A stretch of 64,000 nt of DNA from positions 692 through 64,691 of the forward strand of contig MGGS01000013.1 of NCBI GenBank assembly GCA_001792535.1, in the 5' to 3' direction. The notes below the pieces were generated by a model, which had not been told where the DNA came from, did not search any database, and saw nothing but the letters and a program-made list of their open reading frames with translations. The translations under genes were made by a program, and so were the position numbers. The DNA is from Candidatus Woesebacteria bacterium RIFCSPHIGHO2_02_FULL_42_20. Its GTDB lineage: Bacteria > Patescibacteriota > Microgenomatia > UBA8517. Positions 2,502 to 49,959 of the stretch are shown here, one piece after another. Position 1 is the first letter of the stretch, and every line of letters begins with the position of its first letter.

Positions 2502-3440
2502 TCATACACCGGCTACTGACACTCCGGTATAGAGAATGAAAATCATCGCTAGTGTCCAGAGGATAACCGATGCCACTAGTGACACATCGGTTAAAAGCAG
2601 TTTTTCGGGTGCTTCGCTTCTGCCTTCAAAAATTAATTTCTGATACCTCATTATTCCGAATATTACTATTGGAATAGTGATCATAAGTAGTTTGTTTATT
2701 GTTGTGGTTCTTGAAATCTCGGCTAAAAGTAGCCAAATAGGAAGTGACGCCTTGGGTGACTCAAAGAAAGTAAACAGTGCCCAGCTCATCCAAGACGCGT
2801 TGCCAAACATAGTAACATAAGAGTTTAGTAATTCCTTCTGGTAGTGATTGAGGCTTTTTCTGGTTTCAAGCTTGGTTGCCTTTACAAAATTCAACTCGGC
2901 CCGGCGCTTGCCTGAGGCTAAAAATAGCGCTGTCGAGACGACACAGAGGAGAAACCACACGGAAAGATGAGCGTCGATGACTACGGCACCTGCATAGACT
3001 CTAATGATAAATCCCGATGCAATGATCAAAATGTCAGCGACAGCGATATTTTTGATCCCCAATGAATAAATGAGCTGTAAAAAAAGGTAGCCCAAAATGA
3101 GGGCAAAGAAAAGATCTCCTGCCCTGTTTGCCATGAAAAGCGATAAAAAAGCCAAAATGGCAGCAATGCTAGTGGCAACAGTCGGTGAAACCGTATTTGC
3201 CGCGACAGGTCTATTTTTTTTGGTGGGGTGGAGCTTGTCGTTTTTGGCGTCTAAGACGTCGTTAAAAACGTAAGTAGCGCTGGCGGCAATGCTAAAAACG
3301 ATGAAAGCGTAGAATGAGAAAACAAACAAATTTCTATCTAAGAGTGAACCACTAAAAAGGAGGGCAGCAAAAACCGATAAGTTTTTGATCCAATGAATTG
3401 GGCGGGTCAGCTTTATTATTTCGATCGGTAAGTAAGCCAT
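2502..3440 (-). CDS. UbiA-superfamily polyprenyl-phosphate transferase (context suggests decaprenyl-phosphate phosphoribosyltransferase-like)
   Basis: Eight to nine TM helices; Asp-rich motif NDVLDAKNDKLHPTKKNRPVAANTVS (NDxxDxxxD followed by HP.K..RP), the UbiA fold signature. Overlaps the next gene by 25 nt. Confidence 0.7.
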   Translation of the reverse strand: MAYLPIEIIKLTRPIHWIKNLSVFAALLFSGSLLDRNLFVFSFYAFIVFSIAASATYVFNDVLDAKNDKLHPTKKNRPVAANTVSPTVATSIAAILAFLSLFMANRAGDLFFALILGYLFLQLIYSLGIKNIAVADILIIASGFIIRVYAGAVVIDAHLSVWFLLCVVSTALFLASGKRRAELNFVKATKLETRKSLNHYQKELLNSYVTMFGNASWMSWALFTFFESPKASLPIWLLLAEISRTTTINKLLMITIPIVIFGIMRYQKLIFEGRSEAPEKLLLTDVSLVASVILWTLAMIFILYTGVSVAGV

Positions 3441-4447
3441 AAGAGTAGTCCACCTACAAAGAACGCGACTCCCACAATTGTATATAACTTAAGGTTTGCA
3501 TTCAAACTCAAAGAGATCACGCCCAAAAGCGCAGTTACTAACCAATAGAAAAGGGCAACTTTTCTTTTGCTCCATCCCGAGTCGAGCAGTTTGTGGTGAA
3601 GGTGACCCCTGTCTCCCCAAACGGGGGATTTTCCGGAAAGTACTCTTCGTACTATGGTGTACCCGGTATCGATTATGGGTACACCCAAAACAACAGCCAG
3701 GGTCCCAACTTTAGTCGTTGAAAGTATCGAGAGGATGGCAAGCATAAAACCTGCGAGGTTTGACCCTGCAAAAGACGGCATGATTTTTTGGGGATAAATA
3801 TGCCAAGGAAGGAAACCAAGAAAGGCTCCGGCGGTAATTGACGCGAGAATAATTACAGGCCACTGTGCAATATCGGCCGAGAACTTGAGAGAAAGAATAC
3901 CGATAAAGATTGCCGCTATGGCGACGGTTCCAGACAGTTGTCCGTCAACTCCTTTTGCTCCCATATTAAGTATGTTCATTAAAAATACTATCCAAAAGAT
4001 TGCGAAAATGTCGGCGAGAATAGGGTATTTGGATAGGTCGATTATGCCCGTTCCAAAGGGGTTATTAATAAAATTTATTCCGATGCCCGCAAGTATAGGA
4101 ATAGTCGCGGCGACTAACTGAGCTAGAAGCCTGAAGTAAGGATTGATGTCATATTTGTCATCGAGAATTCCTATGATGGTGATGAAAGTGGCAGCCAAGA
4201 GAATTGCTTGGATGTGGCTGTCTAAAGGTAGAAAGGAAGCTATGGCGAGCGCTAAGGCGATGAAAATTGCCAGCCCTCCACCGCGTGGGACAGGATATGT
4301 GTGGATGGTCTTGGGGTGAGTTGTTTTTTTAGGATCGTCGATAATGCCGATTTTCCAGGCAAACTTAATTACAACAGGTGTGGTTACGAAGGCGAGGAAG
4401 AAAGCCAATAGAACCGGGTTTATAAAGAGTCGGACAAAGTTGTTCAT
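3416..4447 (-). CDS. MraY/WecA-family (GT4) polyprenyl-phosphate N-acetylhexosamine-1-phosphate transferase
   Basis: Ten to eleven TM helices; GIIDDPKKTTHPKTIHTYPVPRGGG and ILDDKYDINP acidic motifs typical of MraY/WecA/WbpL. Not in a dcw/mur context, so a WecA-like role is more likely than MraY. Confidence 0.75.
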   Translation of the reverse strand: MNNFVRLFINPVLLAFFLAFVTTPVVIKFAWKIGIIDDPKKTTHPKTIHTYPVPRGGGLAIFIALALAIASFLPLDSHIQAILLAATFITIIGILDDKYDINPYFRLLAQLVAATIPILAGIGINFINNPFGTGIIDLSKYPILADIFAIFWIVFLMNILNMGAKGVDGQLSGTVAIAAIFIGILSLKFSADIAQWPVIILASITAGAFLGFLPWHIYPQKIMPSFAGSNLAGFMLAILSILSTTKVGTLAVVLGVPIIDTGYTIVRRVLSGKSPVWGDRGHLHHKLLDSGWSKRKVALFYWLVTALLGVISLSLNANLKLYTIVGVAFFVGGLLLWLTYRSK

Positions 4448-4465
4448 CTATTTAGATTGGTCATC

Positions 4466-4822
4466 TTAAAAATTACCCACAAGCGAAAGAGTTTTATAAA
4501 CGGCGAAGGCTGCCATGACCGAGGTGACGGCAACCGTACTGGTGAGCAATTTTTGTAAAAATTTATCTTTGATTATCTTTGCAACCCCAACGTTTACCAT
4601 CGTTGCAATTAAGGCGGTGGCAGGTGGTAAAACCAGGTATATTTTAGGTAAAAGTTGTTCGTTCCCCCTGGGCTTCCCGTAAAAAAGCGGTATCTCGGGG
4701 GGAAGGTTGTTTTGGAAAAGTAAACTGACAAAGATTGCAAGCGAGTCAATTGCCAGGCTCAGTGTGACAATTCTTTTAAACGGCAAGCCGCTTGCAACTA
4801 ATTTACGATCAGTGTTTTTCAC
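4466..4822 (-). CDS. small integral membrane protein (3 TM), unknown function
   Basis: 118-aa ORF overlapping the downstream GT-C gene by 4 nt; hydrophobic helices; no recognisable motif. Confidence 0.35.
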   Translation of the reverse strand: MKNTDRKLVASGLPFKRIVTLSLAIDSLAIFVSLLFQNNLPPEIPLFYGKPRGNEQLLPKIYLVLPPATALIATMVNVGVAKIIKDKFLQKLLTSTVAVTSVMAAFAVYKTLSLVGNF

Positions 4823-6318
4823 TCTTGGTGGATTTTACCTCGACTTTGTTGTAAGTACCAAATTTCCGCCGTCTGAATGGTTTTTATTTTTATAAAGTTT
4901 TGTTTTAGAAATTGGTTTAGTTGAGGAAAACTGTCTGCCTCGCTTAGTACGACCACGGCTTTAGGGGGGTTAGCAGCCAGATCAATTAAAACTGTTTCGG
5001 GTGAATAAAAATCCTTTACGTGATAATCTGCTACATATTTTATTGGCGGGAGCCTTTTGGCAAGGGCGTAAATTGTTGATGTGCTGCCCCAGACAAAAAT
5101 TCTGTCGTACCGGTCCGTTATAGTAGTTAGAAACTGCGCTACTTCATAGTCTCGTGGTGTATTGGAGTCAAAATTCTTGAGGTAATCGTTTATGGTTACT
5201 TTGCTTGTAGCAAATTCAAAGAAGCGGTTATAGTAACTTGAGGTGGAGTAATACCAAAACTTAAAATAAAATGGGACGACTGCAAATAGCGAGAGCGGGA
5301 TAATTGAGTAAACCTGTTCTTTCTTTGGCGAAGTTGCCAATAATGCAACCAACAGAGAAAGGGGTGGTACCGTTTGCATTAAATAATGGGGGTAGGGCCG
5401 CTCGGAAAGAGTTGCCGCAAAAAGCGTGAAGACAAGCCAAACAGTAGCAAAAGTAAAAGTAAGCGACAGTTTTTTGCGAAGAAGGTAAAGAGTAACCGTT
5501 ACAATTAATACAATTAAGCCACGAATAAGAATGGGTGCGTTACGCTCTAAAAACGGCGCTTGCGTTTCATCTGGCCTCCAGGAAGATAAATATCCGACGT
5601 TTTGAGCAAAAGCGGCGCTTATATATTGGCTTAATCCGCCCCGAAAATAATACCAAGCGAAAGTTAGAAGTATAGGGGTTGCAAACCCGATGGCTAATGG
5701 AAGAGCTTTTCTTGCAGTATTAAGTAGTCCTTTAATGTTAAACGTCTCTTTAAATAGCCAAATTATAATAATTACAGGCAGATCAAAGGCAGCTGGGATT
5801 TTAAACAGTGTTGCAAGCGAAAATAAAGCTCCGGCGATTAGTATTTTTTGAGTATTTAGTTTTCCGGCCAAGAGTAGTAGAAAAGCAGCAACACTTAGTC
5901 CAATCATAAAAACTTCGGAATTGGCTATTTGACCTTCAAAAAGCGGGATTGTAGACAAAAGTGCAAAAACAAACGTGGCAACTTTTTGAGCCTTCAAGTT
6001 TTTGGGAAAGAGCCTTTTGGTAAGTTGCCAGAAAATTACGATGTAGACTATATTCCAAAGCGCAAGGATCATTCTAAACCAAAAAACGCTTCCGGCAATT
6101 GCAGCAAGGACATAAAGGAGAGGCGGTTTGTTGTCATGGATGTCGCGGTAAAGCACCAAGCCTTGGCGTATTCCTTCTCCCAGAGTTAAATAAATCATTT
6201 CATCGCCATAAGCGTAGGGCTCAAAAAAAGAGGGAATTCGAAGAATAAAAACCAAAACTAGTGTCGCAATTAACCAATTGGGTAGCGAGGCACCGACGAT
6301 TTTTTTGAGGAGTTTCAT
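4819..6318 (-). CDS. GT-C fold glycosyltransferase, ArnT/PMT (GT39/GT83)-like
   Basis: N-terminal YGDEMIYL ... KPPLLY (the DE and PPL motifs of PMT_2/ArnT enzymes), about 11 TM helices, then a C-terminal soluble domain of about 150 aa. Confidence 0.7.
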   Translation of the reverse strand: MKLLKKIVGASLPNWLIATLVLVFILRIPSFFEPYAYGDEMIYLTLGEGIRQGLVLYRDIHDNKPPLLYVLAAIAGSVFWFRMILALWNIVYIVIFWQLTKRLFPKNLKAQKVATFVFALLSTIPLFEGQIANSEVFMIGLSVAAFLLLLAGKLNTQKILIAGALFSLATLFKIPAAFDLPVIIIIWLFKETFNIKGLLNTARKALPLAIGFATPILLTFAWYYFRGGLSQYISAAFAQNVGYLSSWRPDETQAPFLERNAPILIRGLIVLIVTVTLYLLRKKLSLTFTFATVWLVFTLFAATLSERPYPHYLMQTVPPLSLLVALLATSPKKEQVYSIIPLSLFAVVPFYFKFWYYSTSSYYNRFFEFATSKVTINDYLKNFDSNTPRDYEVAQFLTTITDRYDRIFVWGSTSTIYALAKRLPPIKYVADYHVKDFYSPETVLIDLAANPPKAVVVLSEADSFPQLNQFLKQNFIKIKTIQTAEIWYLQQSRGKIHQE

Positions 6319-6340
6319 TGTTAATTGAGTTTAGCAGGTA

Positions 6341-7693
6341 TTATCTTGCCAGCAAAATAAACTTTAATTCGCCAAACTCCTTAACAAGGCCTTGCCTATA
6401 GTTTTCGATTTTAACTTCGTCGGGGTTTCCGCTGGTTATAACACCCACCCGAAAGGTTTTTTTGGGAATATCGTTTACAATGTCGTTTTCAGTCATTTGA
6501 GCCGTTCCTACATAAAAAGGCAACTCGGCTCCGCTTGGGACGTATAAAGGAGCTTCTAATTTATAGTATTTTGTTTCCCAAATGTGATGGGCGGCAGCAT
6601 TCCAATTAATGAGAAAGTCGTCGCCGCGTTTGACCTCGTGGATATATTGGGCGAGTTCCCGAAAAGGTCTCTTTGTGGGGTGGACGAAATATTGGTAGTC
6701 GACGAAGACGAATACTATTAGCAAAATACCCAATAAGACACCCGAGACTTTTCTGGTATTGGTTGCAAGCAAGATCATCGCGGCAGGGATTGTGTAGAGT
6801 AGGTAGCGGTCGAAAAAGATCGACTGAAATTTTTGGGAGACTGACCAGGTGAGCACTATTGGTCCCAAAAACCAGGAGAGCAAAAAGGTTGATTTGGCGA
6901 CGTTTGTGCCCCACCGTCGCACAATATATGTGGTATATGTTAAATACAGCCCGTAGCGTGCTAATTTATTTGGCAACCCCTCCGCGATATATTTTTGTAT
7001 GAGTCCGCGCAGGTCGGTTAGATTTGGTGTTGCGAGCCAGAACCCGGAGCCGACGAGTGTTGTTTGGTAATAAAGTGCAGACAGCCAGGGTGCGTAAATT
7101 AAGCCGATTGCCAGATATGACTTAAATATATTAAACGCCGTCTTTCTATGTCCCCAAACTGCAACTTTTACGAACCATAAGCCTTGGATAAATATGGCAA
7201 ATAGTGCAAAATGATGGCTGTAGAGTGCCCAGGAAGTACCAATAACATACCCCAAATAATCTTTGAAACTTGCTCGCTTTCGTACTCTTCCAAGCGTGTC
7301 GGTTTTTGGAAAAATTATTTTTGCAAAAAAATACATCGATATAGTGACACCGGCAGCTAGTATCGAATACATCCGGCCCTCAAATGCATACTGGAAGAAG
7401 AAGGGATTAAAAAAGGTAAAAGCGGTGGCTAAGATTGCGGCTCTTCGATTCCATAGCAAGGCCGTAATTTTATAAACGAAAAAGATAGCAACACAATAGT
7501 AAACAAATGACAGCGCTCTTATTGCCACTTCCCCGTCGCCGAATATTTTATACCAGTAGTGAAGCGTGAGGTTATACAGCGGTGGGCTGGTGTCACGGCT
7601 GATTATTTCCAAAATTTTCGGTACGGAATTTCTTGAAAGTACAGCGCTAAACGCTTCGTCCCCCCAAAGGCTTTGATTGAATACAGTTTGCAT
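6341..7693 (-). CDS. GT-C fold glycosyltransferase, ArnT/PMT-like (paralogue)
   Basis: WGDEAFS ... SPPLYN motifs, multiple TM helices, C-terminal soluble domain; same architecture as 4819..6318. Confidence 0.7.
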   Translation of the reverse strand: MQTVFNQSLWGDEAFSAVLSRNSVPKILEIISRDTSPPLYNLTLHYWYKIFGDGEVAIRALSFVYYCVAIFFVYKITALLWNRRAAILATAFTFFNPFFFQYAFEGRMYSILAAGVTISMYFFAKIIFPKTDTLGRVRKRASFKDYLGYVIGTSWALYSHHFALFAIFIQGLWFVKVAVWGHRKTAFNIFKSYLAIGLIYAPWLSALYYQTTLVGSGFWLATPNLTDLRGLIQKYIAEGLPNKLARYGLYLTYTTYIVRRWGTNVAKSTFLLSWFLGPIVLTWSVSQKFQSIFFDRYLLYTIPAAMILLATNTRKVSGVLLGILLIVFVFVDYQYFVHPTKRPFRELAQYIHEVKRGDDFLINWNAAAHHIWETKYYKLEAPLYVPSGAELPFYVGTAQMTENDIVNDIPKKTFRVGVITSGNPDEVKIENYRQGLVKEFGELKFILLAR

Positions 7694-7700
7694 AATTTAA

Positions 7701-8861
7701 CTATTTTGGGTACCAAACAAGGTATGTTCTTAGTGAATCCCACTCATCCTCTGATAAGTCGTTAAAAAAGTTGGAATAAATTTCATCCGAGCATAGGACT
7801 TTTTCAACATTTTTGCCGCTTTCCCAAACGAACCAGCAATCATTGAAAAAGGGATTGTATATAGTGTGATCAAAAAAGATTCTGCCGCCGGCATCGGCCA
7901 AAAGAAAAGGAGCCAGGTAGTCAGAAACATAATTTCCCTCCGGCTTTACGCGATTAAAATATAGGTTGTTAGAATAGTGTTCTTCAGCCACGTTATAAAT
8001 TGTGTAAACATAGTTTTCCTTGGTAGGTTCCAGTTGGAGGGGTAAAAGGCCGAAATTCCAGAAACGCTCTATACTGGTTGAAAAGTGGGTAGTAACTTTT
8101 CCTTTTAGAATCGTTTGGGCACCGGTATTTATATCAAGCACGACATCTTTGGTCCCCGTCAGTAATACTTTATTTTGTTTCAGCGAGCCGACAGCGCCGA
8201 AGTAGTAATAAGTTTTTGTAGCCGGTAGTGGGAGGCTGGAAATGTTTTTGTACTCCTGATAATCGTAAATTTGGATTTTGTTTAGATTGCAACTTGAAGA
8301 GTCTGTTATTGAAGGCGTGTTTGTTGACACAAGAAGCAGATGGTTTTCGATGCCCCAGTCGATAACGTCTATCTTTCCGCAATCGCCGCCGATTCTGAAT
8401 TCAGCTAGCTTTTCAGGCCCGTGAGTTTTCAAGTCATATCCCCAAACTTCCTGTTTGTTTTTTTCCCATTCCAGGACAGACAGTATAACCAATGGATAGT
8501 ATCTTTCAGTTTCTAACTCAATCTCTACATAGGCGTCTGAGGGTTTATTGGCTACTTTTTTGAACTCTGTCGTATCAATCTCTTTTCGCCTTAGTGAAAC
8601 TTCTTTTTCGTATTCAAAATAGGGGTGGGAAAACGCAGCGCGCGTTAATTTTCTGGTTTCTACATTCAGTTCCCAGTACGTTTCGTTTTTATCATATTCT
8701 CCCACTGGTTTTGATCCGAGCCCAGTATCTGTATAAAAAACCGCAGTCTCTTCGGTGGAAGTGGGTGTAGCGATGCCGTTATTTTTGTTGGCAATGAGAA
8801 AAATAATGGCAAGAAAGACAATGATCAAAATTGGGATTAGAATAAACCCCCTTTGCTTCAT
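7701..8861 (-). CDS. secreted/membrane-anchored hypothetical protein (candidate glycosylation target)
   Basis: N-terminal signal anchor MKQRGFILIPILIIVFLAIIFLIA, then a 360-aa soluble domain rich in Thr/Ser/Tyr; last gene of the GT-C block. Confidence 0.45.
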   Translation of the reverse strand: MKQRGFILIPILIIVFLAIIFLIANKNNGIATPTSTEETAVFYTDTGLGSKPVGEYDKNETYWELNVETRKLTRAAFSHPYFEYEKEVSLRRKEIDTTEFKKVANKPSDAYVEIELETERYYPLVILSVLEWEKNKQEVWGYDLKTHGPEKLAEFRIGGDCGKIDVIDWGIENHLLLVSTNTPSITDSSSCNLNKIQIYDYQEYKNISSLPLPATKTYYYFGAVGSLKQNKVLLTGTKDVVLDINTGAQTILKGKVTTHFSTSIERFWNFGLLPLQLEPTKENYVYTIYNVAEEHYSNNLYFNRVKPEGNYVSDYLAPFLLADAGGRIFFDHTIYNPFFNDCWFVWESGKNVEKVLCSDEIYSNFFNDLSEDEWDSLRTYLVWYPK

Positions 8862-10092: not shown

Positions 10093-10806
10093 ATGACTTG
10101 GGAACTCGACCCGGACCTCAGGCAAAGATCCGAAGCCATACTAGAGACAAAATCTGACCGTATAGGTCGTGCGTATTGGGATTCTCGATTGAAAAGAAGC
10201 CTTGACCTAGTGGCATCTGGCATGAGTCTGCCGTTTGCCTCCTTCCCCGTTGTCTTGGGGGGGTTAGCTATCTTAGCTAGCGACAGACACAATCCATTAG
10301 TCGACGTTGGTTACGATCTTTTGGATAGCGGCAGAAAAACCAGACATTACAAAATGAGGACAATGGTACCCAATGCTCAGGTGCTCGAGGCAGAAGTTGT
10401 CGGTGGAATGTTGCTAAAAGATTTCAAAAAAGGAAGAAGAGATCCTAGGGTTACTAGAGTTGGTAAGTTTTTAAGAAAGACAACTCTTGATGAGTTGCCA
10501 CAGCTGATTAATGTTTTACAAGGAGACCTTTCGATGGTTGGACCAAGGATGCCTTCGATGACCGACTGGGGGTATATAAGAGAAAATAGAGATTCGGAGC
10601 CTTATAAAAGTTTTATTGATCTTCTGCATGAGGGGTTGAAAATTGGAGCTACCGGTTTTTACGGAATCATGGGTAGGTCAAATTTAGATATGGGAAATAG
10701 GCTTGGTTTGGATGTTGTTTACGGAGAAAAAGCCAGTTTTAAGGGCGACTTAAGAATAATTGGATTGACTTTCCCGATATTTCTTTCAAGAAATAAAAGC
10801 GCATGA
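10093..10806 (+). CDS. small monotopic phosphoglycosyl transferase (bacterial sugar transferase; PglC/WbaP C-terminal-domain type)
   Basis: Single re-entrant hydrophobic segment, then KMRTMVPNA ... TLDELPQLINVLQGDLSMVGPR: the KxRSM and DELPQL...GxMSxVGPRP signatures of polyprenyl-phosphate hexose-1-P transferases. Confidence 0.8.
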   Translation: MTWELDPDLRQRSEAILETKSDRIGRAYWDSRLKRSLDLVASGMSLPFASFPVVLGGLAILASDRHNPLVDVGYDLLDSGRKTRHYKMRTMVPNAQVLEAEVVGGMLLKDFKKGRRDPRVTRVGKFLRKTTLDELPQLINVLQGDLSMVGPRMPSMTDWGYIRENRDSEPYKSFIDLLHEGLKIGATGFYGIMGRSNLDMGNRLGLDVVYGEKASFKGDLRIIGLTFPIFLSRNKSA

Positions 10807-21931: not shown

Positions 21932-22207
21932 CTATTTTATTCTCCAATACTTAATCTGACCAAAGTAAATACACAAGGAAAATAAAACTGTTACAAAAAG
22001 TGTTGTAAACTCGGTAAAGAAGTAACCAATGTCAACTAATTCTTGATTGCCAGAAAGGCGGAGCGTGAAACCGATAACGAAACTGACTAAAGGAAAAACA
22101 AATATTGCCAGCTTTCCTAATTTCAGATTAAAGTTGCCAACAAAGTTTTTGATTAGTATTACAGTTGCAGTTAAGACTATTAATTCTACAGAAATGCTTT
22201 TTATCAT
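21932..22207 (-). CDS. small membrane protein (3 TM), unknown
   Basis: 91-aa hydrophobic ORF. Confidence 0.3.
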   Translation of the reverse strand: MIKSISVELIVLTATVILIKNFVGNFNLKLGKLAIFVFPLVSFVIGFTLRLSGNQELVDIGYFFTEFTTLFVTVLFSLCIYFGQIKYWRIK

Positions 22208-22270: not shown

Positions 22271-23257
22271 CTAATTTGTATACTGAAAAAGTTCGGGGTT
22301 AATTTTCCAATCAGGCGTGGGATAGTTTGTCCCCCAAGCTTCTGGACTATCCACAGCATTAAAATAGGAGATTGTTTTAAGAAGAGGGTAATTATAACTA
22401 CTGTTTACAGCATCTAGAAACCATTCTTTCTGGAATTGGTCATCGCCCGTTACGCCAAACTCAGTGATTATTATTGGTTTATTATACACCTTGAAGATAT
22501 TGTATTTTTCTGAAAATATCTCGTCAAAATCTCTTACCTTTCCGTAATTGTCTATGTCCCATTTGGGGTATATAAAAACCGATAAGCCAATAAGATCAAC
22601 ATATTCGTTACCGGGCCAGTAATTGTTGGCGTTTTTGTGGCCAACCGGGGACCATATATAAAAGTTTTTTGAATCAATACTTCGGCATTTATCGACAAAA
22701 TATCTGAATGCGTATATAAAGCTGTCATGGTCTTCTTTTGCCCAGGGGTATCTTTCTGTTACGTTTTCCATTTCGTGACCCCAGCGGACAAATACTGGAT
22801 TTTTGGAATTTTTAAAATCAGCGCATATAGTGTCGATTTCTCCGTCATACAGCCCATCAACGATATCGGTTAGCAAAGAAGTGTTTTTTTCCTGGCTGCC
22901 GTCTTTGCTGAATGGCTCGACAGTAACCATTGGCCAGCGATTTTTTTGAAATACATTTTCGAAAAACTCATCAAGATTTCCCTTTCGGTACTCGTTCCAC
23001 TTAATAAATTGATGTTGAATTGCCATTGTGTTTACTTTATCAAAGTGGTCTTCAGGGTCGTAAACCCCGAAATTTATTGTAATATTTTTCCATTCTAGGT
23101 TGCAGTTTTTCTGCAAAGGTTTTAATCCGGAGTTACACAGGATTGATTTGTATCCCCAAGTAATTCCGCTAATGGCAGACGTGCCACGGGTTACAATTGC
23201 AGATATGGGAAATATGAACAAAACCAAACCGAAAATTATTAGTAGAAATCTTTTCAT
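22271..23257 (-). CDS. secreted clan GH-A glycoside hydrolase, GH26-like (beta-mannanase-like)
   Basis: Signal anchor; VRWGHEMEN (acid/base Glu in the W.R.GHE.N context of GH26) and IIITEFG (nucleophile Glu in an ITE motif). Start overlaps the upstream GT2 stop by 1 nt. Confidence 0.55.
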   Translation of the reverse strand: MKRFLLIIFGLVLFIFPISAIVTRGTSAISGITWGYKSILCNSGLKPLQKNCNLEWKNITINFGVYDPEDHFDKVNTMAIQHQFIKWNEYRKGNLDEFFENVFQKNRWPMVTVEPFSKDGSQEKNTSLLTDIVDGLYDGEIDTICADFKNSKNPVFVRWGHEMENVTERYPWAKEDHDSFIYAFRYFVDKCRSIDSKNFYIWSPVGHKNANNYWPGNEYVDLIGLSVFIYPKWDIDNYGKVRDFDEIFSEKYNIFKVYNKPIIITEFGVTGDDQFQKEWFLDAVNSSYNYPLLKTISYFNAVDSPEAWGTNYPTPDWKINPELFQYTN

Positions 23258-24837
23258 TATTTATTTTCTCCGTATAATTTATTCTCTCTAAGATGGTTTC
23301 CGATAATAGCAAAGAGTGAAAGTGTGTAGGTAAGAGCATTTAGTATTGCAAAATAGTAATAACCATAAACTCTGTTTGACGCGTTTCCAAGGAGTGTAAT
23401 ATAACTCGATAGAATAATTATCAAAAGATATGGCGTTAACATGAAAATGGGTAATGGTTTTTTACCTGACTCTCCCTTTGTAGTCACTTTAAAAGAGACT
23501 TCCTTGCGAGAAAGGCCGGCAAGTAAACCGTATAATACTCCTGCTAAAATCCACGGCCATCTGACTATCTGAAAAATAAATGTTTCCCAAGAGATAATTT
23601 TTGAGTTAACAGGCCTTAGCAACTGTATTTTTTTAATCCATAAAGTAATTCCTAAAGCAACAATGGTAGTTAGCCAAGAAATAAAACTAAATGTAATGTA
23701 AGTTACGTTAGCCCACGGCCTATTAGTTAGTATTGCAAATATAGGCAGGCCATATGCAAAAACCATTGTTGTTGAAAAAAGTGGATACCAAAGTTGGGAA
23801 AACAAAAATTGCACCTTAAGTTTCAGAGGCAAGCTTTTTATATATTTAGGGGTAATGGTTAGCAGAATTATGACCAAACTTCTTGTCCATTGAAATTCTT
23901 GTATCATGCTGTCTGGGAAACTTCCGGCACCGTCGCCATGAGCAATAGCCTCAAATGCGTGAACACCCTTCCAGCCAAATGAATTCATCATAAGCGTTGT
24001 TGAATGGTCCTCTGCCAGTTCAGGGCCTAAGCCCCCAATTTCCTTGAGTGCTTTGGTGCGTACGGCATAATGCGATCCGATACAAAGTGGCGCCCATCCG
24101 GAGTTATAACCCGCTTGCAGGGGGCCATGAAGTGTTGCTTCGGAGTAAAGCCTGGCTCTTGCAGCCCAGCTTTTGTCCGTATTGGCATCGCAAATACTCG
24201 GCGCTGATACATATCCGACTCTGGGATTTGCAAACGGCCGTAGCATTTCTTCCAGGTATCCCTGTTCCGGTACGTGGTCGGCGTCCATTTGAACAACGAA
24301 CTCGTAGTTATCATAACCCCAACGATCGTAAAAGTAAGCTAGGTTTCCCTCTTTGCATTTAGTCCTTCTCGGCCAATTCTCACGATGGTATTCTACAACC
24401 CCCTTTCTGGTTGAAATAAATACGCGTTTTTGTTTGCACCAAGCAATTACTTCGTCAGTGGGGTTTTCATCCGCAAGCCAAGTGTCGTGGGGATATTTTT
24501 GGTTAAGCATCGCAGTGAGTGTCTTTTTGACTATTTCAAAAGGTTCTGATGGCGCTTTTGTGACTACCATTGCAACTCTAAGATCATCTGGAATTGGAAG
24601 GGCGGGGTTTGGCTTTTTCATTCTCGAGGCGAAAAAGAAAAAATAGGCGGGCATTAGCATGTTCCAAGCAATCAGCAGGCTATTGAAGACAAAACTCAAT
24701 TTTCCGACTACATGTGAAGGGTCGAGCCACCAAATCCAAAAAACAGCAACAAAGAAAAGCCATAGGCTAAGTAATATATAAAAAACCACCCTTTGCCTTA
24801 GGTTCATGACATCAACAAGATATGGCACTCTTTTCAT
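23257..24837 (-). CDS. processive synthase-type GT2 glycosyltransferase (cellulose/chitin-synthase-like)
   Basis: Two N-terminal and four to five C-terminal TM helices; VVTKAPSEP, QMDADH (DxD), LAEDHSTT (TED) and IQEFQWTRS (QxxRW variant with Q replacing R). Confidence 0.7.
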   Translation of the reverse strand: MKRVPYLVDVMNLRQRVVFYILLSLWLFFVAVFWIWWLDPSHVVGKLSFVFNSLLIAWNMLMPAYFFFFASRMKKPNPALPIPDDLRVAMVVTKAPSEPFEIVKKTLTAMLNQKYPHDTWLADENPTDEVIAWCKQKRVFISTRKGVVEYHRENWPRRTKCKEGNLAYFYDRWGYDNYEFVVQMDADHVPEQGYLEEMLRPFANPRVGYVSAPSICDANTDKSWAARARLYSEATLHGPLQAGYNSGWAPLCIGSHYAVRTKALKEIGGLGPELAEDHSTTLMMNSFGWKGVHAFEAIAHGDGAGSFPDSMIQEFQWTRSLVIILLTITPKYIKSLPLKLKVQFLFSQLWYPLFSTTMVFAYGLPIFAILTNRPWANVTYITFSFISWLTTIVALGITLWIKKIQLLRPVNSKIISWETFIFQIVRWPWILAGVLYGLLAGLSRKEVSFKVTTKGESGKKPLPIFMLTPYLLIIILSSYITLLGNASNRVYGYYYFAILNALTYTLSLFAIIGNHLRENKLYGENK

Positions 24838-24920
24838 AAACGAAGCATGAATTATAACTAAGATTGGAAGGCTGCGTCAATATAGCAAAGAAATTCTCCA
24901 GGCGTGGTAAAATTAGATTC

Positions 24921-27842
24921 ATGGCGGAAGAAAAGAAATTGAACAAGGAACAAAAAGAGGCGGTTGGGTTTAGGGACGGGCCGCTTTTGATTATTGCCGG
25001 GGCTGGGACGGGTAAAACCACTGTTGTAACCGAGCGGATAAAGCGGTTGATTAGCAAAGGACTGGCAAAACCTCAAGAAATTTTAGCCTTGACTTTTACC
25101 GAGAAAGCCGCGCTCGAGATGGAGACCAGGGTCGACGAGATAATGCCTTACGGCTACACACAGATGTGGATTATGACTTTCCACTCCTTCTGCGATCGGG
25201 TTTTGCGTGCTGATGCGCTTCACGTTGGCTTGGATCCAAGATATAAATTGATGACTGAAGCGGATGCAATAGCTTTAATCCGCAGAAATCTCTTTAAATT
25301 GGAGTTGGAATATTTTAGGCCTTTGGGTAATCCGACCAAATTCGTAAGCGGTATACTGCAACATTTTTCGCGTCTTCAAGACGAAGATGTAGACCCAAGT
25401 GACTATCTCACTTGGGTAAATTCCAATTTTCAAATTCCAAATTCCAAATTAAGTCAAGAACAAAGAGTTGAGGGAAATAAATACAGGGAGTTGGCAAATA
25501 CCTACAGAAAGTATGAGGAGTTAAAAATCAAAGAGGGTGTCATGGATTTTGGGGACTTAATTACCAAAACCCTAAAACTTTTTCGCGATCGGCCGAATGT
25601 TTTAAAACAGTATAAGTCCAAGTTTAAGTACGTCTTGGTAGATGAGTATCAGGATACCAACATTTCCCAAAACGAGTTAGTCAAACTTTTGGTCGGTAAA
25701 GAGGGCAATATTACTGTTGTAGCGGATGACGACCAAGCGATTTACCGCTGGAGGGGCGCTTCGATCTCTAACGTTATTCAGTTCAGAAAAAGCTTTCCTG
25801 AAACACACGTTGTAACGCTGACGAAAAATTATCGTTCTACCCAAAAAATTCTGGATAAAGCCTACCAACTTATACAGAATAATAACCCCGACAGATTGGA
25901 GGTTGTTGAGAAAATAGGCAAAAAACTTGTATCACAAGTTGACAAGAATGGCGAGGATATTAACTTTATTCATAGAGACCGTATTGAAAACGAAGCAGAC
26001 AGCGTGGCGAAAGAGGTAATTCAACTGATTAAACTGCAGAAATATGATTATAAGGATATCGCCGTGCTCGTGCGAGCCAATAATCACGCAGATGCCTTTG
26101 CCAGAGCCTTTGCCTGGCAGGGTATCCCTTATCAATTTTTAGGCCCCGGAAGACTTTTTAGACAATCGGAAGTTGTTGACCTGGTTTCTTATTTGCGAGT
26201 TTTGTATAACTTTGAAGATTCAGTGTCCTTTTATAGAGTTTTATCGATTGATTACTTTGATATTCTTGCGCGTGATTTGGCAAAAATTGGAAATTATGCC
26301 AAGCGCTATAACTTAAGCTTGTTTGAAACCGTTGAAAAAATTGATGAAGTGTCGGTCGGCGAGGAAACCAAGGAAAAACTAAAGAAGATTATGTTACTGA
26401 TAAACAAGCACCTAAAACTTGTACGGCGTGAAACCACGGGCCAAATTCTTTATTACTTTTTGCAGGATAGCGGTTTACTACAAAATCTTATTAACCCCCA
26501 GTCACCTGAGGCTGAAAAACAGGCTAAGAATATATCAAAATTTTTTGACAAACTAAAAAACTACGAAGCGGAGCACGAAGACGCGACTATTCCGGCCGTC
26601 GTTGATTGGTTGGATTTATCCACCGAGTTGGGCGAGTCTCCTTTGGCTGCAGACACTGACAGGCCGGAAGTTGACGCGGTAAATATTCTGACTGTTCACG
26701 GAAGTAAGGGCCTAGAATTTCCCGTTGTATTCTTGGTTAACCTCGTCGGCCAGCGCTTTCCGTCGACAGAAAGGCAGGAGCAGATTCCAATTCCGGAGGA
26801 GTTGATCAAAGAAATTTTACCGCAAGGTGATTTTCATCTGCAGGAGGAGCGAAGGCTTTTTTATGTCGGAATGACTCGGGCGCGCGAGCGCCTGTATTTT
26901 TCGGCGGCAGATTACTATGGGGAAGGGAAGAGAGAAAAGAAGCTTAGCCCGTTTATTTTTGAAGCGCTTGGGGATGAAGCAATAGCCAGCGAGCCCTTCG
27001 GCGATGCTCAGGGTAAACAGCTAAGTTTTTTGGATTACGAGCCCACCAATCACCAATCACTAATTACTAATCACCGGCAAAATTTCCATATAGATTATCT
27101 CTCTTACTCCCAAATCGAGACTTTCAAGGTCTGTCCTTTGCACTATAAACTTGGGTATATTTTACGGATTCCTACTCCCCTGTCTGCATCACAAAGTTTC
27201 GGGACCTCAATACACACGACTTTGAAATACTTCTACGAGCAAGTTAAAAATGGTAGTAAATCTGCTGAAAAGCTTCTTTTAGATATTTATAAGGACTCTT
27301 GGGTTAAAGAAGGCTATACTAGTCGTGAGCACGAGAAGAAGTTTTTCGAAAAAGGTAAGGATTATTTAAAAGGCTATTTTAATGTGGAATTTGATTCGAA
27401 GGTGTTACCGGCACTCCTTGAACAGCGATTTACGATCCCGTTGGCAGAAGAAAGTGAACGACCTTTAAAAATCGGCGGTGTAATAGATCGAGTTGATGAA
27501 CATGAAGACGGGTCAGTTGAAATAATTGACTACAAGACAGGAGCAAATATACCTTCCCAAAAAGAGGTTGATAGTAATTTGCAAATGACTTTTTACGCAC
27601 TCGCTGCAGTGATGTTACAAGATAATCCGTTTAATAAGGACCCCAAGGATATCGCCTTGTCTTTATATTTTCTTGACAACCAGCAAAAAATTTCGACGAG
27701 GAAAACTAAAGAACAGCTGCAAAGCGCAATAAAAGAAATCTTTGAAATTAGAAAAGAGATAGAGCAATCAAACTTTACCTGCTCCGGCCACATGTTCTGC
27801 CGTAACTGTGAGTATAAACTGATGTGCAATATTGACAACTAA
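24921..27842 (+). CDS. UvrD/PcrA-type SF1 helicase fused to a C-terminal Cas4/AddB-like PD-(D/E)XK Fe-S nuclease
   Basis: Walker A AGAGTGKTT; helicase motifs DEYQDTN, TKNYRST, VHGSKGLEF, GMTRAR; C-terminal nuclease with one upstream Cys (CPLHY), the EIIDYKTG motif and terminal Cys triad CSGHMFCRNCEYKLMC. Start chosen at ATG 24921 (MAEEKK). Confidence 0.8.
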   Translation: MAEEKKLNKEQKEAVGFRDGPLLIIAGAGTGKTTVVTERIKRLISKGLAKPQEILALTFTEKAALEMETRVDEIMPYGYTQMWIMTFHSFCDRVLRADALHVGLDPRYKLMTEADAIALIRRNLFKLELEYFRPLGNPTKFVSGILQHFSRLQDEDVDPSDYLTWVNSNFQIPNSKLSQEQRVEGNKYRELANTYRKYEELKIKEGVMDFGDLITKTLKLFRDRPNVLKQYKSKFKYVLVDEYQDTNISQNELVKLLVGKEGNITVVADDDQAIYRWRGASISNVIQFRKSFPETHVVTLTKNYRSTQKILDKAYQLIQNNNPDRLEVVEKIGKKLVSQVDKNGEDINFIHRDRIENEADSVAKEVIQLIKLQKYDYKDIAVLVRANNHADAFARAFAWQGIPYQFLGPGRLFRQSEVVDLVSYLRVLYNFEDSVSFYRVLSIDYFDILARDLAKIGNYAKRYNLSLFETVEKIDEVSVGEETKEKLKKIMLLINKHLKLVRRETTGQILYYFLQDSGLLQNLINPQSPEAEKQAKNISKFFDKLKNYEAEHEDATIPAVVDWLDLSTELGESPLAADTDRPEVDAVNILTVHGSKGLEFPVVFLVNLVGQRFPSTERQEQIPIPEELIKEILPQGDFHLQEERRLFYVGMTRARERLYFSAADYYGEGKREKKLSPFIFEALGDEAIASEPFGDAQGKQLSFLDYEPTNHQSLITNHRQNFHIDYLSYSQIETFKVCPLHYKLGYILRIPTPLSASQSFGTSIHTTLKYFYEQVKNGSKSAEKLLLDIYKDSWVKEGYTSREHEKKFFEKGKDYLKGYFNVEFDSKVLPALLEQRFTIPLAEESERPLKIGGVIDRVDEHEDGSVEIIDYKTGANIPSQKEVDSNLQMTFYALAAVMLQDNPFNKDPKDIALSLYFLDNQQKISTRKTKEQLQSAIKEIFEIRKEIEQSNFTCSGHMFCRNCEYKLMCNIDN

Positions 27843-28411
27843 AGCACTCTTCGGGGTAGGCGGTAGATATAAAAAGCGCTTGTGAAGCAAAGGGTCGCCA
27901 TTAAAATAAACAACGTGTTAAAACCAAACAAAGTTACGATAATCCCGCCAACTATAGCACCGATTGATAAGCTAAAGTAGTTAGTTGACTCCCATGCGCC
28001 CCACTGACGACCGGCCTTGTCTACATTGAGATGTTTTGAGTAAACAGCGTCGAAAGCGGGAGAATAAAATGCCTCGGCCGAACCGATTAGCACCTGGACC
28101 AATAAAAGAAAAAGAACCGAATTAGCTTGAGTATAAAGCAGGTACCCAAAAGCAATTACTCCGTATCCACCTGCGACTATTAGTTCGTTTTGTTTAATTT
28201 TATCTGCGAACCTTCCAGCGATTAAAGTAGTAGCACCTGCGGCGAATGCAAAAGCTCCTCCTGTGATGCTGGCATCTAACAAACTCCCCCCCACTTTGTC
28301 GACGAAAAGTGCATAAATTGGGGCAAGCATTGCACCGGAAACCAAAATAAGTGCGTTTGTTCCGAGTAAAATCTTCAACGCCTTGTTTAGGGGGATTTTA
28401 AAAAATGCCAC
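27839..28411 (-). CDS. six-TM membrane protein, MFS-like half-transporter
   Basis: 190 aa, six TM helices, GRFADK loop resembling an MFS motif-A; only half the length of a canonical MFS protein. Confidence 0.4.
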   Translation of the reverse strand: MAFFKIPLNKALKILLGTNALILVSGAMLAPIYALFVDKVGGSLLDASITGGAFAFAAGATTLIAGRFADKIKQNELIVAGGYGVIAFGYLLYTQANSVLFLLLVQVLIGSAEAFYSPAFDAVYSKHLNVDKAGRQWGAWESTNYFSLSIGAIVGGIIVTLFGFNTLFILMATLCFTSAFYIYRLPRRVL

Positions 28412-45521: not shown

Positions 45522-46997
45522 TTAGGTGTTTCTTAGTATTTTAATAGTTCCTTTATCTGCATGGACTTCGACCAAGTCCCCATCTCTTAAAATAGCAGTT
45601 GCATTAACCGTGCCGACAATACACGGCACACCGAATTCTCGGGCAACAATTGCGGCATGGCAGGTGATACCACCTTCGTCGGTTACGAAAGCTGCTGCTT
45701 TTTCCATAGCAATTACAAAATCAGGGTTTATCATTGAAGAGACCAGAATATCACCTTTATTTACTTTTGGTATATCTTTATTGCTGAAAACAACTTTTAC
45801 TTTTCCTTTCGCAGTGCCTCTTGAAGCACAAATTCCTTTAATTTGATTAGTTGCATCTTTCGACCCGGCCTTTTTTTGTTTTTTGTATTTTTTAGAAACT
45901 AAGTTTTGCAAATTTACTGCCTCATCGCCAAACCGTTTGGCCAGTTTTCCCTGGATCCAAATAATGGCAAACCCCTTTTGTCTTTCTTTAACTAGGTGGA
46001 CTAAATTCTGCTTGCTAACTTTGTTGTCTAGACAGGAGGCAATTTCATCTGGTTCTAAAGAAAGGATTACAGAAAAGGGTAGACCTGCCCTTTTTGCGAT
46101 TTCCTTAAAAAGAGCGACTTTTGTGGCCTGGAAAAGATGTTCGTTAGATTCTGTAGTCAAGGTCCTTAGAAAAATAAATGTTCTCAAAGCCTCGACAAGC
46201 TTTAGTAATTTTCCATGAATGGTATATTTTTGTATGCTTTCCTTGTACTCTTTTTCAGCCTTTGTCCTTTCGCTCCTGATTCTATTAATTTCATAATCTA
46301 GGTTTGTTTTTAATAGATAAAGTTTAATTCGCTCTAAATAGTCATTTTTGGTGAAGGAAACATCTTCGGTTGTTATCGGACCCTTTTGCCATGCATAGTT
46401 TCGGACATGAAACTCAATATCTTTGTCTATCTTTTTACCCTCTTTAATTTTTTGCGCAGTCAACATTAATTTTAGGGGCTCGTCTCTATAGGCCAGCTCG
46501 CCTAAATCTGCCGGTATAGTAACTTTTCCAATAGCATTTTTGGGCAACTCTTTTGATAATCTTTCTTCCAGATACATATCGGGCCTAACCCACGCAGGAA
46601 TCATTGATTTTACATACATTTCAGAGAATTGATTTAAGTGTTTGAGCAGTTCTTGGTTACTCAATTCTTTAAAATTAATTTGTTCTAAATAATAGCGGAA
46701 GTTTTCAACGTTTTCTGTTATATCAAAAATTTTCTTTGCAAATTTTTCAAAGAAACTTTGATCTTCGTTGAATTTATTATCAAAAAAGTTATAAAAACTT
46801 TGAAGGTCGTCTTCAAGGTAATATTCGTCACCGTTTAGGATCATAAAGTTATCTGAGGTAATTGACAACCCTGTATATTTTATCTGATTGCTTTTTGTGT
46901 TGGCCTGAATTTGTCCCCATTCAATAAACCAGCAAAACTTTCTACTAACTTCAAAAGTCCAGTTTAGGTGATTAACTTTTTCTAAAACCATTCTCAA
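45522..46997 (-). CDS. protein with unknown N-terminal 390-aa domain and C-terminal PEP-utilising swivel domain
   Basis: C-terminus DEGGITCHAAIVAREFGVPCIVGTVNA is a second phosphohistidine domain. No ATP-grasp (PPDK_N) or PEP-binding TIM barrel is present; convergent with 45172..45483. Confidence 0.6.
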   Translation of the reverse strand: MRMVLEKVNHLNWTFEVSRKFCWFIEWGQIQANTKSNQIKYTGLSITSDNFMILNGDEYYLEDDLQSFYNFFDNKFNEDQSFFEKFAKKIFDITENVENFRYYLEQINFKELSNQELLKHLNQFSEMYVKSMIPAWVRPDMYLEERLSKELPKNAIGKVTIPADLGELAYRDEPLKLMLTAQKIKEGKKIDKDIEFHVRNYAWQKGPITTEDVSFTKNDYLERIKLYLLKTNLDYEINRIRSERTKAEKEYKESIQKYTIHGKLLKLVEALRTFIFLRTLTTESNEHLFQATKVALFKEIAKRAGLPFSVILSLEPDEIASCLDNKVSKQNLVHLVKERQKGFAIIWIQGKLAKRFGDEAVNLQNLVSKKYKKQKKAGSKDATNQIKGICASRGTAKGKVKVVFSNKDIPKVNKGDILVSSMINPDFVIAMEKAAAFVTDEGGITCHAAIVAREFGVPCIVGTVNATAILRDGDLVEVHADKGTIKILRNT

Positions 46998-47037
46998 GTT
47001 ATAAATATCCAGGAAATTAAACCGAAGAAGTGCTTAA

Positions 47038-47748
47038 TCAGATTATATTTCCTGTTTTTCTGAATTCCTCGTACATTCTTGCTACGTCTCCAAGCCTATC
47101 CAAAATGTCAGGGATATTACCTGTGTTTAAATCATTTAATACATCCTTCGCTTCTTCCCTTGACAAAACATCGCGTGCCAGATCAGTTACACTTTTTGGA
47201 TCTTGATTGCCGATTCTTCTAACCATAATAGCTGCCAGTATCAGATTTATTCCGGAAATATCTTCATCAACGTGCCTTATATGTGCCCCACTCTTGGTAA
47301 CTAAAACTTCAATAGCAATTCCTCCTTGTGGAGTTACTTGCGCGGTTACCCATTTTTTATCCGGTGTTTTATTATCGCCGTTAACAATAAACGTTTGTGC
47401 ATCTCCAGTTGCCTCGACATCATCAATCTCTGTTCTTATGACCGGCCAAAATATTGAGTCTTCTACACTCGCCATTTTTGCAAGACCGGCCTGTTGTAGC
47501 CGTCTCGCTTCACCTCTTTTACCTTCTGAAAGTCTTTGTTTGGCTTGCACCGATTCATCCGGAAATTGGAATTCCGGTTTTTGTTTGGTCAAGATATATG
47601 TAGCTTCCACGGGGTAAATTACTGCATGAGTATAGCCCTCACCGGCTTTAATTTGAATTAACCTCCCCGTTTCTTTTACGGTTTCAGTTACTTGCTTATT
47701 GTCTATATTATCATGGGATACATCGGAGGATTCATCAGGCGATGGCAT
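47038..47748 (-). CDS. hypothetical protein (236 aa)
   Basis: ORF only; acidic, no recognised motif. Confidence 0.35.
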   Translation of the reverse strand: MPSPDESSDVSHDNIDNKQVTETVKETGRLIQIKAGEGYTHAVIYPVEATYILTKQKPEFQFPDESVQAKQRLSEGKRGEARRLQQAGLAKMASVEDSIFWPVIRTEIDDVEATGDAQTFIVNGDNKTPDKKWVTAQVTPQGGIAIEVLVTKSGAHIRHVDEDISGINLILAAIMVRRIGNQDPKSVTDLARDVLSREEAKDVLNDLNTGNIPDILDRLGDVARMYEEFRKTGNII

Positions 47749-47749
47749 A

Positions 47750-48124
47750 TTAGGGATTCTTTTGTGAAGTAACCTTTTCCAAAACCTCTTTTTCCTTGAG
47801 TTCCACCTTAATTGTGCGGAGAAGTTGAGTACCTAAACTTGCAAGTTTAAACCCTGTTGATGCCACAAAGCCCATGAAAAATAAGTGGGCGGCAATGTTT
47901 AGTGGTTTATTTAATTTATCGGAACTGACGAGTTCCTGTTTAAAGTCTGCGTCAGCCGGGGCTTGGTCGGCAAACTTTGAAAAATCCAAAGAAACCGATT
48001 CGAAGGAAAAGAGATTAATAGGCTCTACTTTTTTAGTAAATACCTGATAAACATTGAGTACGGAGAATAAAATCGCAGCAACCCCGACTCCAAGTAAGAC
48101 ATAACCTACCAACTTTTCACTCAT
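47750..48124 (-). CDS. small N-terminally anchored membrane protein
   Basis: One TM helix (LVGYVLLGVGVAAILFSVLNVY), 124 aa; start abuts the stop of 47038..47748 gene. Confidence 0.35.
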   Translation of the reverse strand: MSEKLVGYVLLGVGVAAILFSVLNVYQVFTKKVEPINLFSFESVSLDFSKFADQAPADADFKQELVSSDKLNKPLNIAAHLFFMGFVASTGFKLASLGTQLLRTIKVELKEKEVLEKVTSQKNP

Positions 48125-48199
48125 ACGATGTTATTATACAACAAACTGAACCTTAATTTCACTAGTGGATCAAAGATAGCAGTTCCAATGGAGTGGGCG

Positions 48200-48227
48200 T
48201 TGACATTGAGTATCAAAACACTATAAT
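48200..48227 (+). promoter_or_regulatory. consensus sigma70 promoter TTGACA-16-TATAAT; predicts a near-leaderless transcript for 48237..48524
   Basis: TTGACA at 48200..48205 and TATAAT at 48222..48227; start codon ATG at 48237, about 3 nt after the expected TSS. Confidence 0.5.
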
Positions 48228-48236
48228 TATATTAGT

Positions 48237-48524: not shown

Positions 48525-48713
48525 TAAGGTTAGACTTTTTTGTAAATGGCAGATCTAATCCGATATTAAAAGATCATAAATTAATTGGAAGCTTAAAAGG
48601 GTCTCGTGCATTCAGCGTCACCGGGAATTATAGAGTTACTTATATAGAGGTCAAAAGCGGCCACTATATATTTATAGATGTTGGCACTCACTCTCAGATA
48701 TATAAATAGATAT

Positions 48714-49367: not shown

Positions 49368-49377
49368 AAAAAATTTT

Positions 49378-49470: not shown

Positions 49471-49493
49471 TTTTATCCTCGCTTCGCGAGGAG

Positions 49494-49955: not shown

Positions 49956-49959
49956 TCCG

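Follow-up and report, generated by a model that had tools for sequence, protein, structure and literature searches.

A putative two-gene exopolysaccharide module of the ApsS/ApsE type in a Woesebacteria genome

Results

The 64-kb stretch of DNA analysed here (hereafter the window) comes from a bacterium of the candidate phyla radiation (CPR), Candidatus Woesebacteria bacterium RIFCSPHIGHO2_02_FULL_42_20. It carries two overlapping minus-strand genes, the first encoding a glycosyltransferase of family GT2 and the second a divergent glycoside hydrolase of family GH26, the latter protein matching a hypothetical protein from the same bin at 100% identity. The pair probably represents the synthase-hydrolase core, ApsS and ApsE, of the system that makes an arabinose-containing polysaccharide (APS) in Sinorhizobium. 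A sequence-only reading of the same DNA had already placed both open reading frames (ORFs) here, with the synthase stop codon overlapping the hydrolase start codon, and this is correct: the final A of the synthase TAA (23259..23257) is the first base of the hydrolase ATG (23257..23255). The features of the pair are as follows.

24851..24880, minus strand: candidate operon promoter, TTGACG-18 nt-TATAAT, near-consensus sigma-70-type, 11/12 matches (pattern match only)
23257..24837, minus strand: putative ApsS-like GT2 synthase, BcsA-like, 526 amino acids (ORF, Pfam/NCBIfam, AlphaFold, Foldseek)
24277..24285, minus strand: DAD, synthase residues 185-187, DxD motif binding metal and uridine diphosphate (UDP), D185 and D187 family-invariant (alignment)
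24007..24015, minus strand: AED, synthase residues 275-277, within an invariant GPELAED, aligned with the TED of BcsA (alignment)
23887..23901, minus strand: QEFQW, synthase residues 313-317, family-invariant variant of QxxRW, aligned with QRGRW of BcsA and followed by a near-invariant R319 (alignment)
23268..23271, minus strand: GGAG, Shine-Dalgarno-like, 10 nt upstream of the hydrolase ATG, within the 3' end of the synthase gene (read from the sequence)
23255..23259, minus strand: TAATG, stop/start overlap from synthase to hydrolase, 1 nt in common (read from the sequence)
22271..23257, minus strand: putative ApsE-like divergent GH26 hydrolase, 328 amino acids (ORF, Pfam, AlphaFold, Foldseek)
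23192..23248, minus strand: hydrophobic N-terminal helix of the hydrolase, residues 4-22, after K2 and R3 (hydropathy, model)
22763..22786, minus strand: RWGHEMEN, hydrolase residues 158-165, E162 aligned with the acid/base Glu109 of CtLic26A (alignment)
22454..22468, minus strand: ITEFG, hydrolase residues 264-268, E266 aligned with the nucleophile Glu222 of CtLic26A (alignment)

The TAATG overlap together with the internal GGAG is an arrangement typical of translational coupling. The promoter-like site ends 13 nt before the synthase ATG, inside an 83-bp divergent intergenic region. The G+C contents of the two genes (0.41 and 0.38) show no meaningful difference from that of the window (0.41), and a recent transfer is not indicated.

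The synthase matches only the generic GT2 models of Pfam, and its scores against the cellulose synthase models of NCBIfam (TIGR03030 / NF008558) are 65.4 bits versus a cut-off of 699 and 37 bits versus 992. Its closest solved relative by sequence is nonetheless the cellulose synthase BcsA (phmmer E 9e-18, identity ~20%), and the structural comparison points the same way. The AlphaFold model, computed with 55 homologues (pLDDT, the predicted local distance difference test, 91.6; pTM, the predicted template modelling score, 0.90), comprises two N-terminal transmembrane helices, a GT-A domain, a long interfacial helix bearing QEFQW and four C-terminal transmembrane helices, the transmembrane helices being found by hydropathy as well. 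In Foldseek, this model best matches BcsA of Rhodobacter and E. coli (4p00, 9b8v), with TM-scores of 0.70-0.72 over ~530-550 columns, followed by plant CesA and then by hyaluronan synthases. A PilZ or any other C-terminal domain was not found with Pfam, and the protein stops after its last transmembrane helix. By these marks (scores below the curated cut-offs, no PilZ, altered motifs), the GT2 is not an orthologue of BcsA.

The altered motifs deserve attention. The sequence-only reading had described DAD, TED, QxxQW and transmembrane helices at both ends of the GT2; all are present except TED, in place of which the protein has AED. Compared with the motif set of processive GT2 enzymes, D123, D185xD187, E276-D277, Q313 and W317 are present, whereas A stands in place of the T of TED and Q316 in place of the R of QxxRW. 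Among 55 aligned family members, D185, D187, the whole segment from G271 to D277 (G271-P-E-L-A-E-D277), Q313, E314, Q316 and W317 are invariant, and R319 is nearly so; D277 is the predicted catalytic base. The Q-for-R change, which had been called unusual, is thus real but shared by the entire alignment, and by itself it is no argument for a loss of processivity. In BcsA, the arginine of QxxRW contacts the UDP diphosphate, and R319 may compensate for its loss here. AED and QxxQW separate the family from all characterised glucan synthases; given their invariance, we regard the two variants as defining marks of the ApsS family, with no sign of decay.

The hydrolase was proposed to be a signal-anchored, GH26-like enzyme, and the helix at residues 4-22, both catalytic motifs and the family assignment have all been borne out. 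The Pfam GH26 model (PF02156) reaches 23.8 bits on the window protein, just above the gathering score of 20.2, and matches 44/44 collected homologues (best E 3.6e-10); both catalytic glutamates are invariant in the 44 sequences of the hydrolase family. The AlphaFold model (pLDDT 93.3) shows a (beta/alpha)8 domain behind the N-terminal helix, and H161-E162 aligns with His108-Glu109 of the C. thermocellum lichenase CtLic26A. In single-sequence phmmer searches, this lichenase ranks first (2e-9), ahead of a beta-1,3-xylanase (9e-7) and the mannanases (~1e-3). With a profile hidden Markov model (HMM) of the family, the order is CtLic26A (6e-26), the beta-1,3-xylanases XYL4 (1e-14) and AlXyn26A (2e-8), then the mannanases (9e-7 or weaker), whose profile E-values lie 6 to 20 orders of magnitude behind those of the lichenase and the beta-1,3-xylanases. 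Foldseek of the hydrolase model likewise returns CtLic26A first (E 4e-17, TM-score 0.75) and XYL4 second, and its top 12 matches are all GH26; the mannanase Man26A, on which the sequence-only reading had wished to superpose the structure, comes third. The hydrolase is therefore a divergent GH26 enzyme nearest to non-mannanase branches of the family, on which phmmer, profile and Foldseek agree. It shares with CtLic26A and with the beta-1,3-xylanases XYL4 (of Vibrio) and AlXyn26A the (beta/alpha)8 fold, the His-Glu acid/base, the Glu nucleophile and a YPWA segment past the acid/base. Identity to these enzymes is, however, limited to 22-24%, and they are cellulosomal or secreted degraders, whereas the window protein is putatively tethered to the membrane and tied to a biosynthetic partner.

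Relatives of the synthase number in the thousands at 53-60% identity and occur in very different phyla. When one genome per GTDB species was scanned, the GT2 family turned up in at least 537 species genomes, including CPR bacteria, cyanobacteria, Planctomycetota, Verrucomicrobiota, Bacteroidota, Myxococcota and Proteobacteria; the neighbourhood counts given here and below refer to the best 80 of these at least 537 loci. When the hydrolase-family HMM was applied to the surroundings of the GT2, 78 of 80 loci, from more than eight phyla, had a homologue no farther than 6 kb away, and one of the two loci without it is interrupted by a contig end. The hydrolase gene is directly downstream (often overlapping) in 32 of the 78 paired loci, downstream with at least one gene between in another 32, on the opposite strand in eight, and fused to the synthase in a single ORF in six (in Caballeronia, Burkholderia, Nostoc and Saccharibacteria). 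Other fused proteins (P0121, P0139, P0159) have intact motifs, and those of 865-880 amino acids from Taylorbacteria and the cyanobacterium Pannus contain both sets of catalytic motifs. In the fusions, the equivalent of the hydrolase N-terminal helix joins the synthase C-terminus to the hydrolase domain. An exhaustive profile search gathered 474 hydrolase clusters (50% identity) at E<=1e-30, fusions and tandem two-domain forms among them, and seven fusions of 853-1173 amino acids are found among the representatives listed. The pairing is far above chance, which strongly supports a dedicated synthase with its cognate hydrolase, as the sequence-only reading had surmised; the synteny across phyla, the natural fusions and the BcsA-like fold of the GT2 all speak for it. 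Outside Proteobacteria, no additional gene family is seen repeatedly near the pair in the best 80 loci, which argues that the functional unit consists of two genes.

Variations on this theme were also encountered. Two or three ApsE-like GH26 paralogues lie beside one synthase in some proteobacterial loci, namely in Microbaculum sp. (L010, 9173-12668) and in three others (L029, L061, L066), and the representative library includes many tandem two-domain hydrolases of 514-577 amino acids. In the cyanobacterial loci L004, L005 and L015, the hydrolase gene is divergent from that of the synthase, which is followed by a gene for a 523-amino-acid TPR protein, a layout resembling the outer-membrane export scaffolds of diderm synthase systems. 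On a 2.4-Mb metagenome contig (L001, 9330-11337), a hydrolase precedes a synthase called as three genes (324, 169 and 166 amino acids), possibly a frameshifted or decaying copy. A sulfatase-family gene of ~510 codons is found near the synthase in L008, L013, L018 and L031, from Bacteroidota and Planctomycetota (directly upstream in L031), so that the polymer of these lineages might be sulfated or desulfated.

Many of the best 80 loci are rhizobial, and it is these that connect the family to a studied system. In S. medicae (L026), the gene order is AraC (divergent), two short-chain dehydrogenases/reductases (SDR), GT2, DUF995, GH26-like and DUF995. The same locus lies at 467-479 kb on pSymB of S. 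meliloti 2011, where ApsS and ApsE were assigned by gene order and domain content, the PLSDB record being unannotated; we take them to be SMb20460 (ApsS) and SMb20462 (ApsE), locus tags not confirmed on that record. The published APS operon reads uxs1-uxe-apsS-apsH1-apsE-apsH2 with a divergent cuxR (PMC7902896, PMC12560781, PMC9495663), and its product is a Congo-red-binding arabinose-containing polysaccharide, APS, induced by cyclic diguanylate (c-di-GMP), as described in papers citing Schaeper et al. 2016, 2017 and 2019 (PMC7902896, PMC12560781, PMC9495663, PMC8546604). Gene order and domains of the rhizobial loci match this operon, which identifies the rhizobial family members as the APS genes. 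Over 518 amino acids, identity between the window GT2 and S. meliloti ApsS amounts to 53.3%, and the two are orthologous over the full length, with DAD, GPELAED and QE(F/Y)QW in common. The window hydrolase aligns with S. meliloti ApsE over 261 amino acids (29% identity, E 5e-42), and it is orthologous as well, with the same pair of catalytic glutamates and a position downstream on the synthase strand.

Among the neighbours of the pair, the gene divergent from the synthase (24864-27842, plus strand) encodes a UvrD/PcrA-type helicase fused in one polypeptide to a C-terminal PD-(D/E)XK nuclease (Cas4/AddB-like); translation of this gene probably begins at the ATG at 24921. Its stop overlaps by 4 nt a 190-amino-acid ORF (27839-28411, minus strand) that matches only half of a major facilitator superfamily (MFS) transporter and may represent either part of a broken gene or a half-transporter. 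Downstream of the hydrolase are a 91-amino-acid ORF and then ASCH-like and NUDIX genes, all outside the conserved unit. The 91-amino-acid ORF (21932-22207, minus strand; G+C 0.315) lies 63 nt 3' of the hydrolase and has three predicted hydrophobic helices. It was considered as a third component and ruled out, a homologue being present in 0/80 related loci, and it may not be a real gene.

Elsewhere in the window, an envelope-glycan cluster (2502-8861, minus strand, and 10093-10806, plus strand) encodes a UbiA-family prenyltransferase, a Glycos_transf_4 protein (MraY/WecA-type), a PMT_2 GT-C glycosyltransferase and two large proteins without a Pfam match, with a Bac_transf sugar transferase nearby; this gene set recalls polyprenyl-phosphate-sugar/GT-C pathways. 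The stretch 46000-55600 has a G+C content of 0.36-0.37, against a window mean of 0.41, and holds an ORF with a Recombinase domain lacking the resolvase N-terminus (50020-50976) and a 514-amino-acid serine recombinase (54047-55591); it may be an integrated element. A tRNA-Pro gene is located at 58927-59000.

Discussion

Based on the orthology of both core proteins, we propose, at a probability of roughly 0.8, that the gene pair is a synthase-hydrolase module of the ApsS/ApsE type. Such a module would be a minimal, synthase-dependent exopolysaccharide system of two genes. The GT2 would act as a membrane-embedded, inverting and processive synthase, its cytoplasmic GT-A domain polymerising a UDP-sugar and the nascent chain being extruded through its own six-helix channel, while the hydrolase would be translated from the same mRNA by way of the TAATG overlap. 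With the GT-A domain in the cytoplasm and two plus four transmembrane helices, the synthase C-terminus should be cytoplasmic as well, and one extra helix would put the hydrolase outside; on this topology of the models, the hydrolase domain is predicted to be extracytoplasmic. A retaining GH26 endo-hydrolase held by its N-terminal helix at the outer face of the membrane could then cut, trim or release the nascent chain, a role comparable to those of BcsZ, PgaB and PelA in other synthase systems. The product expected from the orthology to ApsS and ApsE would be a Congo-red-binding homopolymer of the APS kind, rich in arabinose or, more broadly, assembled from UDP-L-arabinose, UDP-galactose or another 4-epimerised UDP-sugar.

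Several observations weigh against this assignment or against parts of it. Identity between the hydrolase and ApsE reaches only 29%. An SDR of the uxs1/uxe type is absent at E<=1e-5 across the window, though such genes may be located in another part of the genome, and DUF995 (ApsH1/ApsH2) and AraC/CuxR also have no match there, being seen only in loci of the rhizobial type. The arginine of QxxRW is replaced by glutamine, so that a processive catalysis like that of BcsA is presumed here, and what is read as an anchor at the hydrolase N-terminus may instead be a signal peptide that is cleaved off. To our knowledge, no enzyme of the ApsS/ApsE family has been assayed, nor has the linkage of APS been established. 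Schaeper et al. (2019) reportedly describe APS as "solely or mainly composed of arabinose", while the citing papers say "arabinose-containing"; Uxe is reported to be a bifunctional UDP-xylose/UDP-glucose 4-epimerase. Compared with the S. meliloti operon, the window is reduced to the two core genes, without uxs1/uxe, DUF995 or CuxR, and these overlap directly, whereas apsH1 separates apsS from apsE. In S. meliloti, moreover, CuxR together with c-di-GMP switches the operon on and MucR silences it, and that host is a diderm rhizobium, unlike the monoderm-like CPR bacterium.

The proposed ApsS/ApsE-type module has clear analogies with the cellulose system, since in BcsA/BcsZ, too, a membrane-embedded GT2 with its own channel is accompanied by a dedicated extracytoplasmic endo-hydrolase. 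In contrast to BcsA, the window GT2 has neither PilZ nor a BcsB partner, and shows AED for TED and QxxQW for QxxRW; BcsZ is an inverting GH8 enzyme, whereas the window hydrolase belongs to GH26, a family of retaining enzymes in clan GH-A. The suggestion that the polymer differs from cellulose, poly-N-acetylglucosamine (PNAG) and Pel is upheld. Other linear, Congo-red-binding polymers of rhizobia are made by single GT2 synthases, such as the mixed-linkage beta-glucan of Sinorhizobium (BgsA/BgsB) and the curdlan of Agrobacterium (CrdS) (PMC9495663). These belong, however, to other GT2 lineages that did not surface among the relatives of the window protein, and they have no GH26 partner; BgsA also carries a C-terminal c-di-GMP-binding domain, which the window GT2 does not. 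The Actinoplanes GH26 wpsE is part of a Wzx/Wzy cluster, a different system. The glucomannan gene gmsA of Rhizobium leguminosarum was considered as a counterpart and set aside, since it probably forms part of the polar UPP-type pathway and is not known to be a BcsA-like GT2. Literature searches for GH26 in connection with cellulose-synthase-like, cyanobacterial or synthase-dependent exopolysaccharides, and for DUF995, returned nothing relevant.

Which sugar is polymerised can be approached through the accessory genes. Among the best 80 loci, uxs1 and uxe together occur beside the GT2 only in alpha- and beta-proteobacteria. A GalE/Uxe-like 4-epimerase accompanies the GT2 in these, in two cyanobacterial loci (L004 and L005) and in a Saccharibacteria locus (L016), the latter three having this epimerase without UXS. 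Most loci of CPR, Bacteroidota, Planctomycetota and Verrucomicrobiota are devoid of uxs1, uxe and epimerase alike, as is the window. The recurrence of a 4-epimerase hints at a donor that has been 4-epimerised, either UDP-L-arabinose or UDP-galactose. From each of these, an inverting GT2 would produce the linkage geometry that is cleaved by retaining enzymes of clan GH-A. At strict thresholds, no residue separates GT2s linked to uxs1/uxe from unlinked ones. Relaxed thresholds bring out five conservative positions (M73A, K160R, Y168F, K450R, Y493F) that are confounded with phylogeny. The active-site segments are identical in the two groups, which speaks for a single chemistry throughout the family. 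The nearest relatives of the hydrolase, namely the lichenase and the beta-1,3-xylanases, accommodate 1,3-linked sugars across subsites -2 and -1, and this analogy hints at 1,3-linkages in the polymer. By analogy with APS, the window product could be an arabinose- or galactose-type polymer, a tentative assignment to which we give slightly less than even odds. A beta-glucan or xylan-type polymer is a serious possibility too, one that we hold at somewhat less than even odds, and the UDP-glucose beta-glucan discussed next takes up part of this share.

The same kind of module could indeed make a beta-glucan from UDP-glucose (mixed-linkage, 1,3-linked or cellulose-like) in the CPR host, and perhaps in all members without uxs1/uxe, its hydrolase being a lichenase-like glucanase. 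The closest solved relative of the hydrolase is after all a beta-1,3-1,4-glucanase, the best structural match of the GT2 is a cellulose synthase, and its weak NCBIfam matches are to CelA. Furthermore, pentose-nucleotide genes are missing from the window and from most non-proteobacterial loci, and UDP-glucose would be the most available donor in a reduced genome. However, the catalytic motifs are the same as in ApsS proteins linked to uxs1/uxe, without differences of the kind that mark specificity, and the family-invariant AED and QxxQW are unlike those of all characterised glucan synthases. The accessory sugar-nucleotide gene, where there is one, is a 4-epimerase, for which a glucan has no need. 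We thus consider the glucan unlikely.

A beta-mannan or glucomannan, made from GDP-mannose by a CslA-like synthase and cut by a GH26 beta-mannanase, was the product favoured by the sequence-only reading. This choice is understandable, since most characterised GH26 enzymes are beta-mannanases (see also PMC13390465) and database annotators have labelled several of the homologues "beta-mannanase". Yet mannanases are the GH26 structures farthest from the family (profile E-values of 9e-7 or weaker, against 6e-26 and 1e-14, with the same order in Foldseek), and a GDP-mannose pathway gene lies beside the pair in 0/80 loci. In the studied orthologous operon, moreover, the ApsS/ApsE module follows genes for a UDP-xylose synthase and a UDP-xylose 4-epimerase, and the polymer that is built there from UDP-sugars contains arabinose (PMC7902896, PMC12560781). 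The evidence does not bear out the mannan proposal, and we judge such a product very improbable. The last alternative, a nutrient-acquisition enzyme lying by chance next to an unrelated and uncoupled glycosyltransferase, would agree with the secretion signal of the hydrolase and with the secreted glycoside hydrolases that CPR organisms carry for scavenging, but it is effectively refuted by the repeated, independent one-polypeptide fusions, alongside the adjacency in 78/80 loci of more than eight phyla and the TAATG overlap with its internal Shine-Dalgarno sequence.

The pairing itself is not new to science, the window pair being a CPR member of a known, biochemically uncharacterised type of module. 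In the accessible literature, however, the published system is not described as a GT2 combined with a GH26, and the searchable literature holds no description of the broad distribution of the family, of its natural fusions or of its invariant motif variants. The APS system has been known from genetics in Sinorhizobium only; its catalytic core can now be seen as a module of two genes, sometimes of one, that rhizobia share with CPR bacteria and cyanobacteria at more than 50% identity. The analysis defines the family signatures (AED, QxxQW and a lichenase/xylanase-like GH26 branch) and corrects the tempting equation of GH26 with mannan, and the window pair offers a minimal, easily expressed version of the system for biochemistry. 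For the CPR host, it is one of few surface-polymer systems in a very small genome.

One may go further and ask whether the GT2 and GH26 cassette is self-sufficient for a polymer class new to BcsA-type synthases, namely a pentosan or galacto-configured homopolymer, for instance a 1,3-linked L-arabinopyranan or galactan. AED and QxxQW would then mark the donor chemistry, and the family would stand for a widespread, so far unrecognised matrix or cell-surface polysaccharide. We regard this extension of the ApsS/ApsE reading as speculative and rather doubtful. If it were true, such a polysaccharide would be made also by the ultra-small cells of CPR bacteria, where it could mediate attachment to their hosts.

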